A stretch of 64,000 nucleotides of DNA from an uncultured Gammaproteobacteria bacterium (lineage in GTDB: Bacteria; Pseudomonadota; Gammaproteobacteria; Arenicellales; JAANXG01): positions 1,732 to 65,731 of the forward strand of contig CAMYKW010000005.1 of NCBI GenBank assembly GCA_947259175.1. The letters run 5' to 3'. This document shows positions 11,815-62,926 of this stretch, one piece after another. Numbering within the stretch: position 1 is the stretch's first letter; each line of letters begins with the position of its first letter. Below the pieces are notes generated by a model. The model searched no databases. It saw only the letters and a program-made list of their open reading frames with translations, and was not told the origin of the DNA. A program made the translations under genes and the position numbers.

Positions 11815-11918
11815 CTGAAGCGAGGGGAAATTCTCGCGACCGTCGCCAGCAGGGATGCTGGCGTCGAGCCTACAGGGACGTATTCACGGCGTGTCGCGGG
11901 AATTTTACCTCGGTTCAG
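11815..11918. repeat. Structured intergenic element (long stem enclosing two hairpins); MITE-like or ncRNA
   Basis: 26-nt arms 11815-11840 and 11893-11918 pair at 22/26 plus 2 G.T; inner CGCCAGCA-GGGA-TGCTGGCG hairpin. Confidence 0.6.
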
Positions 11919-19051: not shown

Positions 19052-19164
19052 CTAGGCCGCATTTCTCACCAGGATCCCGGATGCTGGCGCAGGGCTCGTG
19101 CGGCTGCGCGCCGCGCCTGGAGCGAGACCCATAGCGAGCTATGGGTCGAGTGAAGGGCCAGCGC
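19052..19164 (+). mobile_element. ERIC-like miniature palindromic element, copy 1 (left half only, no cassette)
   Basis: CTAG then GCCGCATTTCTCACCAGGATCCCGGATGCTGGCGCAGG; central hairpin GACCCATAGC-GA-GCTATGGGTC; matches 39376 onward; right end missing. Confidence 0.85.
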
Positions 19165-39008: not shown

Positions 39009-39365
39009 TCAGTCCCCGTTCAGCAGCTCCAAGCGGTCTGCGGCCCCCAAAACAACGGTACGCCCGTCAACGGTTTTTAGAACTCTGCGATCGACCGAGT
39101 GGCGATAGACCTGATAGGTTGTGGGGTTTCCTCCTCCGATTACACGCACCGACACCACCTCGTGCTGTGACCGCCAGTGGAAATAGTAGCCAATCGCGGA
39201 AATCGCCATCAGCACGCCGACAAATCCGTAGCTGACCAGGCGGCCAAACCGGTTGTCCACCGGGGCGCCCGGCTGCGATCGCTGCGGCCCGATGCGGCTG
39301 CGGGAGCGGTAAATCGCGTACACCATGGCAACCACAAGGGCGGTAAACAACAACTTGGTCAGCAT
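39009..39365 (-). CDS. Small membrane protein of unknown function
   Basis: MLTKLLFT start, two TM segments and a short beta-rich tail. Confidence 0.7.
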   Translation of the reverse strand: MLTKLLFTALVVAMVYAIYRSRSRIGPQRSQPGAPVDNRFGRLVSYGFVGVLMAISAIGYYFHWRSQHEVVSVRVIGGGNPTTYQVYRHSVDRRVLKTVDGRTVVLGAADRLELLNGD

Positions 39366-39425
39366 GGGGCGCACCCTAGCCCGCATTTCTCACCAGGATC
39401 CCGGATGCTGGCGCAGGACTCGTGC

Positions 39426-39532
39426 AGCCCGGCGACTATTCTCAGTAAGTCGCTTAAGGAGTTTACGCTGTATTTTCGTAGAACGGACACTTAGGATTCT
39501 TTCAGGTGCGTGCCAGGAATAGTCGCTGGGCG
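39426..39532 (+). repeat. Nested inverted-arm cassette A
   Basis: GCCCGGCGACTATTCT, 72-nt AT-rich core, AGGAATAGTCGCTGGGCG, then CCTGG. Confidence 0.85.
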
Positions 39533-39611
39533 CCTGGAACGAGACCCATAGCGGGCTATGGGTCGAGTGAAGGCCAAGCGCAGGTGTGCGAGAACCAGCC
39601 AGGGCCGGGAT

Positions 39612-39716
39612 AGCCCAGCTACTATTCTAAGGTAAGCCATGTTCGAATATACGATGTGTCTTCGAACAACTACCATACGAGTCTTTTTAGTGCTTAACAA
39701 GAATAGTAGCTGGGCG
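39612..39716 (+). repeat. Nested inverted-arm cassette B
   Basis: Perfect 16-bp arms GCCCAGCTACTATTCT and AGAATAGTAGCTGGGC around a 71-nt core; splits host CCGGGAT|CCTGG. Confidence 0.88.
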
Positions 39717-39787
39717 CCTGGTCAGAAATGCGGGCACAATAGCCGCCGTTACTCAGCCGCGCGGCGCATGCAACAGTGGAAAAATGA

Positions 39788-62758: not shown

Positions 62759-62926
62759 GCCCGCATTTCTTACCAGGCGCCCAGCTACTATTCTGGCATG
62801 CACCTGAAAGACTCGTTACGCCATTGATATGAAGAGACAACTTAAATTCCTGATGTGGATTGCTGAGAATAGTAGCTGGGCACGAGTCCTGCGCCGGCAT
62901 CCGGGATCCTGGTGAGAAATGCGGGC
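62759..62926 (-). mobile_element. ERIC-like miniature palindromic element, copy 3 (short, inverted, one cassette)
   Basis: Terminal IRs 62759-62777 and 62908-62926 with 1 mismatch; CTAG at 62926-62929; central hairpin absent. Confidence 0.88.
62778..62881 (-). repeat. Nested inverted-arm cassette C
   Basis: Perfect 16-bp arms 62779-62794 and 62866-62881 around a 71-nt core alignable with cores A and B. Confidence 0.88.

Follow-up and report, generated by a model that had tools for sequence, protein, structure and literature searches.

A short cassette nested in a host repeat with IS1380-like ends: a modular family of mobile DNA in an uncultured gammaproteobacterium

Insertion sequences (ISs) of the IS1380 family have ends starting with CC and, according to ISfinder-based reviews, make target duplications of 4-5 bp. 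Bacterial genomes also contain mosaic or modular repeats with internal inserts, such as BIME, BOX and ERIC, as well as REPINs, RAYT-mobilised and hairpin-forming units of ~100 nt present in many copies, in which two inverted conserved ends enclose a ~70-nt spacer. Here we analyse a window of 64,000 nucleotides (C5:1732-65731, in a 4.18-Mb assembly of 121 contigs, G000, from an uncultured gammaproteobacterium) in which a 104-bp cassette, termed K, is nested twice in a 357-bp composite MITE (a miniature transposable element with inverted repeats), termed host A (39379..39735, plus strand, between two minus-strand open reading frames (ORFs)). Several described systems are close. The IS1380-family elements ISPme1 and ISEcp1 mobilise adjacent DNA via alternative ends that resemble their inverted repeats (PMC9330008). 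The terminal inverted repeats (TIRs) of piggyBac start with CCC and its target site duplication is TTAA, with the variants TTAG and CTAA, IS1380 being the prokaryotic outgroup in PMC10813416. In Coxiella burnetii, IS1111 inserts in the palindrome of QMITE2 (PMC5896051).

Compared with the ISs ISEcp1 and ISPme1, the elements described here are alike in that the host arms equal TIRs of IS1380-family elements in relatives, the ends begin with CC(C) and the duplications are 4 bp; the movement of hybrid or alternative end pairs is reminiscent of the IR-like alternative ends that ISEcp1 and ISPme1 use (PMC9330008). In contrast to IS1380 ISs, however, these are non-coding units of 100-360 bp without a transposase gene, with a defined YTAR target and with inner and outer ends nested. 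The CCC...GGG termini and the TTAA-like 4-bp duplication are shared with piggyBac (PMC10813416), but our elements are bacterial and prefer CTAG as a target, and the parallel concerns ends and targets. In repeatedly landing at one palindromic place inside a MITE, K resembles IS1111 in QMITE2 (PMC5896051), the case that comes closest to an insertion point fixed within a MITE; there, however, the insert is an autonomous IS110-family IS with a DEDD transposase, whereas K is non-autonomous, 104 bp long and has perfect TIRs. TIMEs are similarly modular: their internal modules vary in presence, and whole composites can move together (PMC4133298). In contrast to TIMEs, BIME, BOX and ERIC, however, the internal module here is a MITE in its turn, making duplications when it inserts, and it occupies hairpin slots in two unrelated hosts. 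K is like REPINs in size, inverted ends and copy number, but its arms are not palindromic REP (repetitive extragenic palindromic) sequences and it makes duplications. Nested or mosaic MITEs and the misrecognition of ends by IS1380 enzymes are already known in kind. Neither an IS1380-derived MITE nor a MITE in equivalent hairpin slots of two unrelated repeats was found in the open-access text searched, and a term search of a 2024 review of prokaryotic MITEs (PMC10969869) gave neither 'IS1380' nor 'nested'.

We consider it probable that two MITE families are at play, K being nested in the IS1380-ended host A, with an IS1380-family transposase acting in trans and K entering its slots by recombination. 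Rather than revealing a novel enzyme system for insertion, the locus belongs to a modular family of mobile DNA of the ordinary cut-and-paste type. Both K and host A have CCC...GGG ends and 4-bp duplications of YTAR (CTAG, TTAA, CTAA, TTAG), a combination that points to a DDE transposase of the IS1380/piggyBac type. Supplied in trans, an IS1380-family transposase would drive movement, and the known acceptance of imperfect alternative ends by IS1380 enzymes would explain nested and hybrid units. Composites of host and K are amplified as units. In the slots, K would be acquired or exchanged by recombination and not by site-specific insertion: gene conversion or gap repair, with paralogous host copies as the source, and template switching at hairpins are candidate routes, for each of which the conserved arms and the GC stem bases held in common (GC...GCGCCTGG) would provide the anchor. 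Recombination into slots would explain the fixed right and variable left junction, the absence of duplication, the replaced bases and the mirrored arm changes within one core lineage. The fixed junctions and mostly uniform orientation in this genome could then largely be founder effects of few events combined with co-amplification.

As had been proposed from the sequence alone, the window contains two separate families of repeats; members of one are nested inside the other, at two fixed positions, and the nested junctions show no target duplication. Host A starts with a left arm and 5' segment (HL, 39379..39426) whose terminal CCCGCATTTCTCACC is the TIR of IS1380-family ISs in relatives; it is followed by K copy A in slot 1 (39427..39531), a middle segment (HM, 39532..39612) with a perfect hairpin GACCCATAGC..GCTATGGGTC and the 3' end CCGGGATA, K copy B in slot 2 (39613..39715) and the right arm (HR, 39716..39735, GCCTGGTCAGAAATGCGGGC), all on the plus strand. 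A short form (HL + K + HR, 168 bp) lies on the minus strand at 62759..62926 and carries K copy C (62779..62881, minus strand), while a K-free truncated copy (HL and the first part of HM, 19055..19164, plus strand) has a short GC hairpin, GCGGCTGCGCGCCGC, at slot 1. At up to 3 mismatches, the K arm GCCCAGCTACTATTCT has 6 matches in the window (A, 39427-39442 and 39516-39531; B, 39613-39628 and 39700-39715; C, 62779-62794 and 62866-62881) where shuffles lead one to expect 0.11, 0 of 100 reaching 6. Each arm of A has 2 mismatches to this consensus, and the 16-bp arms of B and C are exact. The 19-bp host arm has 5 matches (19055, 39379, 39717, 62759, 62908) against 0.00 expected. Cores are 71 nt long in B and C and 73 nt in A; they represent a singleton subfamily, K(A), in A, subfamily Kb in B and subfamily Ka in C, which differs at 3 positions from a slot-1 copy at C56:13408. 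Direct reading bears out the three cassettes of the sequence-only reading with their lengths, inverted arms and junctions (its limits include 1 flanking base per side), the CCTGG that follows each of them in host orientation, and the GGCTGCGCGCCGCG at 19102-19115 of the cassette-free copy. The contrast it drew between diverged cores and conserved arms also holds, window cores being 63-67% identical in global alignment and arms near-identical.

K is a MITE that transposes on its own with YTAR duplication. A profile built from 57 cassettes and searched across the whole assembly yields 113 loci that do not overlap, of which 70 are full-length and 43 partial copies. All three window cassettes lie inside the host element, but genome-wide tabulation places 27 of the 70 full-length copies outside any recognised host. 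The others are found in slot 2 of host A (18/70, between CCGGGATA and GCCTGGTGAG...), in slot 1 (10/70, between GGACTCGT.. and GCCTGG..., 6 of these in long forms including window copy A), in short forms with reversed orientation (3/70), in a variant host A' where orientation is ambiguous (4/70), in a second and unrelated repeat, host B (4/70), or followed by a host arm only (4/70). Perfect 4-bp direct repeats flank 5 of the 27 free copies (CTAA x3, TTAA x2) and another 3 have a 3-of-4 match; no target duplication is seen for the 35 copies embedded in host A or the 4 in host B. For both free insertions compared with congeners the orthologous site is empty: K at C27:22956 (TTAA-K-TTAA) is absent from 4 congeners, which have a single TTAA, TTAG or CTAG at the site, and K at C27:13228 is absent in G054. 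The sequence-only reading had counted cassettes at random sites with target duplications as evidence against itself, and such duplications are indeed present, for some of the free copies. The non-palindromic CTAA/CTAA pairs (TTAG/TTAG on the other strand) favour a 4-bp over a 2-bp duplication. K proper is YCCAGC...GCTGGR, and because the 4-bp target duplication adjoins it, the outermost 'arm' bases vary with the flank.

Host A, in turn, is a MITE family of the IS1380 type. Its arm has 114 matches genome-wide, 34 pairs of which bound elements of 112-357 bp ending in CCCGC...GCGGG, and the 4-bp flanks are identical in 26 of these 34 paired copies (CTAG 22, TTAG 2, CTAA 1, TTAA 1). The site orthologous to the window copy is empty in 3 congeners (ccCTAG/cacac). 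The genome has a single IS1380-family transposase gene (C24:50334-51731; NF033539, E 2e-121; PF13701, E 1e-167), in an apparently intact IS (C24:50331-51966) with a 466-aa open frame, ends CCCGGATATTGCACGA / CTCGTGCAATATCCAGG and flanks TTAG / TAGC. The TIR of this IS, CCCGGATATTGCACGA, resembles a host variant arm, CCCGCATATTGCACC, and is related to, but not identical with, the host TIR. Four related genomes have IS1380 homologues with transposases 49-50% identical to that of this genome (P0001), and here the correspondence is closer: the element of G029 has ends CCCGCATTTCTCACC, equal to the host arm over 15/15 bases. The element of G100 has ends CCCCCATTTCTCACC / CCCGTATTTCTCAC with flanks CTAG / CTAA, that of G054 has ends CCTGGATTTCTCACC with CTAG on both sides, and that of G036 has ends CCCGTAAATCTCACC.

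A hybrid unit connects the two families. At C1:~154489-154612, a 19-bp host-type arm is directly followed by K. CTAG stands on either side of this unit, whereas the site in 3 congeners contains CTAG only once. To judge by these flanks, a single transposition event used a host arm as one end and the far K arm as the other. Since the hybrid unit moved, host and K ends appear to serve the same transposase type.

Inside hosts, K sits without duplication where K-free copies have a short GC hairpin or another cassette. At slot 1, K-free copies have a small GC-rich hairpin, either GCGGCTGCGCGCCGC and variants of it with compensatory changes or one of the GGCTGCGCGCC type, and the window host copy is near-identical to its paralogue at C68:22631 except that K(A) replaces GTTGCGCGCC. 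As had been noted from the window, the 3' junction is fixed at this slot and the 5' junction varies, K being preceded by CTCGT, CTCGTGCA or CTCGTGCG. Congeners (L022, L025, L034, L036, L030, L037) have a slot-1 hairpin enlarged by further small palindromes, for example ...GAGCCCCCTGCTGTGCGGGGACAAG..., and slot 1 seems to accumulate nested palindromes in general.

Slot 2, by contrast with slot 1, is occupied in every long form seen, here, in 5 congeners and in 3 genomes of two other genera. K-free long forms of this genome have a K2 cassette there (~83 bp, GGCGTGACTG...CCTGGCGCC), with GGGATA before it and GCCTGG after it as for K; copies are found at C5:111191-111431, C24:61608, C58:35779 and C88:23955 and, in relatives, at L021, L027, L029 and L184-L197. 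K2 ranges over ~83-100 bp and has a short inverted repeat, GGCG...CGCC, at its ends. It is probably the older occupant, because the two other genera have K2-type cassettes alone at slot 2. In congeners without the K arm, slot 2 contains K-homologous cassettes in which both arms are mirror-changed (GCCCCGCGACTATTC, GCCCCGCCTCTATTC, GCCAAGCGACTATTC, GCCCCGCCCTTATTC). An uninterrupted right arm was looked for in the long forms of 34 paired copies here and of 14+20 loci from relatives, and none was seen. The claim that copy B splits the host right arm exactly therefore keeps its junction, as first read, but the intact arm was deduced from the symmetry with the left arm; as slot 2 is never empty in the relatives examined, replacement in an old slot is a better description than insertion into an arm.

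Host B provides a third context. This repeat is unrelated to host A and has ~25 copies (for example C76:8718 and C4:63434), one of which has its slot region in the window (11838..11873, minus strand) with a 21-nt hairpin, ACGCCAGCATCCCTGCTGGCG, at the place where 4 other copies have K. Its layout is ...ACGCCGTGAATAC.TCC.TGTAGGCTCG, the slot, then ACGGTCCCGG...; between GTAGGCTCG and ACGGTCC, the slot contains a 21-22-nt hairpin in 19 copies, K in 4 and nothing in 1 (C101:5028). Compensatory variants of the hairpin are ACGCCCGC..GCGGGCG, ACGCCAGC..GCTGGCG, GTGCCGGC..GCCGGCA and GATGCCGC..GCGGCAT. We also considered C100 and C101 as alleles differing by the 21-nt hairpin and rejected this, the repeat alone being common to both.

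Independent assortment is seen between K cores and the backbones of their hosts: in 13 pairs of slot-2 hosts, HM segments are 95-98% identical yet K cores only 57-66% identical, and conversely one K subfamily is found on backbones as little as 61% identical. Clustering of the cores at 70% identity gives 21 clusters (sizes 21, 10, 10, 4, 4, 3, 2, 2, 2 and 12 singletons). The largest is Ka, of whose 21 copies 20 are embedded, and its slot-1 copies form two tight clusters with 1-4 positions different, which indicates that most embedded copies multiplied with their host. Of the 10 Kc copies, 6 are free and have duplications, and the embedded ones span three different contexts; singleton subfamilies are mostly free copies. 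Counted by subfamily and junction type, entries at slot 1 come from at least 6 lineages (two Ka clusters, Kb, K(A), reversed Kc and reversed Ka). Arm changes are mirrored: the two arms (12 nt) have 0 mismatches to each other in 58 of 91 elements, 7 arm classes are mirrored, and within the single core lineage of Ka, arm position 8 is T/T, T/G or G/G.

Several points count against the explanation that we favour. (i), the window host A copy is itself without duplication (CTAG at the left flank, CACA at the right), as are 8 of the 34 paired copies. (ii), CTAG and TTAA are palindromic, so that most duplications are ambiguous between 4 bp and 2 bp (TA), and the 4-bp reading is carried by few CTAA/CTAA and TTAG/TTAG cases. 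(iii), the K arm resembles the IS1380 TIR weakly (CCC.GC...T.TTCTCA), and for this reason cross-mobilisation is argued mainly from the single hybrid unit. (iv), no transposase gene bounded by K arms was found in the assembly or in the 201 genomes of the order searched for the arm, and in metagenome contigs matching a 14-mer of the arm, a second arm (up to 2 mismatches) is found at 0 of the 80 matches listed. (v), arms of 16-20 bp are short for RecA-type exchange, and K(A) has no close relative in the genome that might have been its donor. (vi), with at least 6 lineages at slot 1 sharing the same right junction, a targeted mechanism would be the simpler explanation.

In the alternative that survives best, the same DDE transposase would also integrate K into extruded hairpins or cruciforms, replacing the hairpin without duplication. 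K is indeed located at the palindrome, or palindrome-bounded cassette, of K-free copies in three contexts (host A slots 1 and 2, and host B), the stem base (G..C) is kept in each of them, and several K subfamilies share the same slots. However, most slot copies derive from few events, and sequence alone does not separate this reaction from recombination; we know of no precedent for it in the IS1380 or piggyBac families and judge it rather unlikely. More broadly stated, as a second K route in which hairpin slots are replaced without duplication and with the stem base kept, either by a structure-directed transposase or by hairpin-anchored template switching, the idea gains a little, and we put it forward tentatively, as a possibility that most probably does not hold. 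Should it be true, then, taken together with the nested and hybrid end pairs, a bacterial IS1380 clade would be a system of interchangeable modules; no other prokaryotic case would come as close to the way piggyBac chooses its targets (a tetranucleotide like TTAA, with CCC ends).

K could alternatively be an ancestral, integral host module, free copies being released fragments. This would fit the occupation of slot 2 in all long forms and the amplification of most embedded copies with their host. It is nevertheless a doubtful proposition: more distant genera have K2-type cassettes and not K at slot 2, slot 1 is polymorphic within this very genome, K is also found in the unrelated host B, diversity is highest among free copies (the 12 singleton subfamilies are mostly free), and cores are decoupled from backbones.

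The sequence-only reading had instead proposed that K is a non-autonomous cassette inserted in a site- and orientation-specific manner before CCTGG, without duplication, by an HUH-type or other site-specific enzyme. Within host A the pattern is suggestive: embedded copies are free of duplications, the right junction GGGC/GCCTGG is fixed (the exact context is found in 15 slot-2 and 8 slot-1 or short-form copies), the left junction of slot 1 varies, and the assembly encodes one Y1 and one Y2 enzyme. Beyond it the evidence goes against the proposal, and we regard it as very improbable. Target duplications of 4 bp flank some free copies, and the orthologous sites compared are empty, as is characteristic of a DDE and not of an HUH transposase. 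CCTGG is no general target, since K is followed by (A)ACGGTCC in host B. Orientation is uniform in this genome for the 18 slot-2 copies with clear polarity and the 6 long-form slot-1 copies, but the 3 short forms are reversed and, in the congener G105, the same K subfamily is found in both orientations at slot 2; orientation specificity is thus a local regularity, not a rule. An enzyme encoded elsewhere, as had been suggested, agrees with the assembly, a search of which gave no autonomous copy with K arms at its ends and no transposase gene between such arms.

The individual enzyme candidates fare no better. The sole Y1 transposase gene (C43:21500-22400, L045; 234 aa, IS200/RAYT-like) is flanked by a 36-nt inverted repeat, AAAAGGGGTCGGTGACAAATGAG..., unrelated to K, and the sole IS91-type Y2 gene is on C71; no K arm lies near either gene in the assembly. 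An HUH-driven K (IS200/IS605, IS91 or REP/RAYT) is not supported, given the free-K duplications and the different motifs after K in host A (GCCTGG) and host B (ACGGTCC), and the RAYT/REP link specifically is rejected, given the other repeats that flank the Y1 gene. As a separate observation, the empty site of G054 that matches the window host copy contains a palindrome of the GGGGTCGG type, similar to this Y1-flanking repeat of C43. IS110/IS1111-type insertion does not fit either: no PF01548 match, and hence no DEDD gene of this type, was found in the assembly (97.7% completeness), the TIRs of K are perfect and both orientations occur. The TA flanks suggested an IS630/Tc1 origin, rejected in turn because the sole DDE_3 gene, in an IS630-family element with TA flanks that is split between two contigs (C12:59500-60583 and C21:1-170), is frameshifted near the C-terminus and the ends, GTGTACTGTCTC, are unrelated. 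No PIF/Harbinger-type gene (PF13359) was matched. An IS1182-type transposase fragment, so assigned by family naming, is present at C17.

That K is a structured small RNA gene or regulatory hairpin conserved for its fold is extremely improbable: its arms co-vary in mirror fashion and form a strong stem, but when the three cassettes of the window are folded on both strands, reliable pairing is confined to the arms while the cores fold weakly and differently in each copy, the window has 0 Rfam matches at gathering score (the sole match at E<=1 being ArcZ, 15.8 bits against a gathering score of 66), a promoter scan of the composite finds 0 promoter-like sites and one terminator-like hairpin, which lies outside the element, and duplications and insertion polymorphism show mobility.

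With nested MITEs in an IS1380-ended host as the favoured explanation, the locus bears on several questions. Footprints of insertion exist for each kind of end pair (outer, inner and hybrid), making the family suitable for asking which ends an IS1380 transposase accepts; this matters because the capture of neighbouring genes of the ISEcp1 type works through end misrecognition. The YTAR target combined with CCC...GGG ends is a concrete bacterial parallel to piggyBac. Hairpin slots filled by a palindrome, K or K2 amount to a natural experiment on the exchange of palindromic modules between repeats. For genome annotation, the elements lie behind many contig breaks and their arms create spurious ATG starts (39384 and 62919 in the window).

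As a family, K is short, non-coding and multicopy, with a typical length of about 102-104 bp (102-106 bp in 57 of 60 arm pairs), ends YCCAGCTACTATTC... and a K-type arm motif YCCAGCKACTATTC with mirrored variants. Its core is moderately AT-rich, with a mean G+C of 46.9% (n=70) against 58.7% for the genome. In a search of 201 genomes belonging to the order, this genome has 114 exact matches to a 13-mer of the K arm, two of six congeners have 7 and 13, and every other genome has 0-1, indicating that the family is lineage-restricted and greatly expanded in this genome. Many partial copies are at contig ends or beside N runs; as runs of 16 or ~56-60 N, which are scaffold gaps or else withheld bases, lie inside host elements (C24:37894-37949, C13:13441-13499, C72, C2:31241-31256), several 'partial' cassettes are cut by N and not truly truncated.

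Among host copies, that at C12:4891-5034 ends exactly at CCGGGATAG, the slot-2 boundary, and is followed by unrelated DNA; its flanks are CTAG / ATAG and HL+HM is seemingly a unit of its own. The search for its empty site returned repeat matches only and no orthologous flank. The ATG triplets in the host arm at 39384-39386 and 62919-62921 (GCCCGCAT and ATGCGGGC) lengthen mechanical ORF calls into the element, and orthologues in relatives indicate an ORF start at 39364-39366. Finally, K also forms tandem arrays (C2:147520-147729, C68:2785-3076, C39:36628-36828 and C58:43507-43861), in one of which a CTAA is common to two copies, the others overlapping such that the right arm runs into the next left arm with a period of ~95-97 bp.

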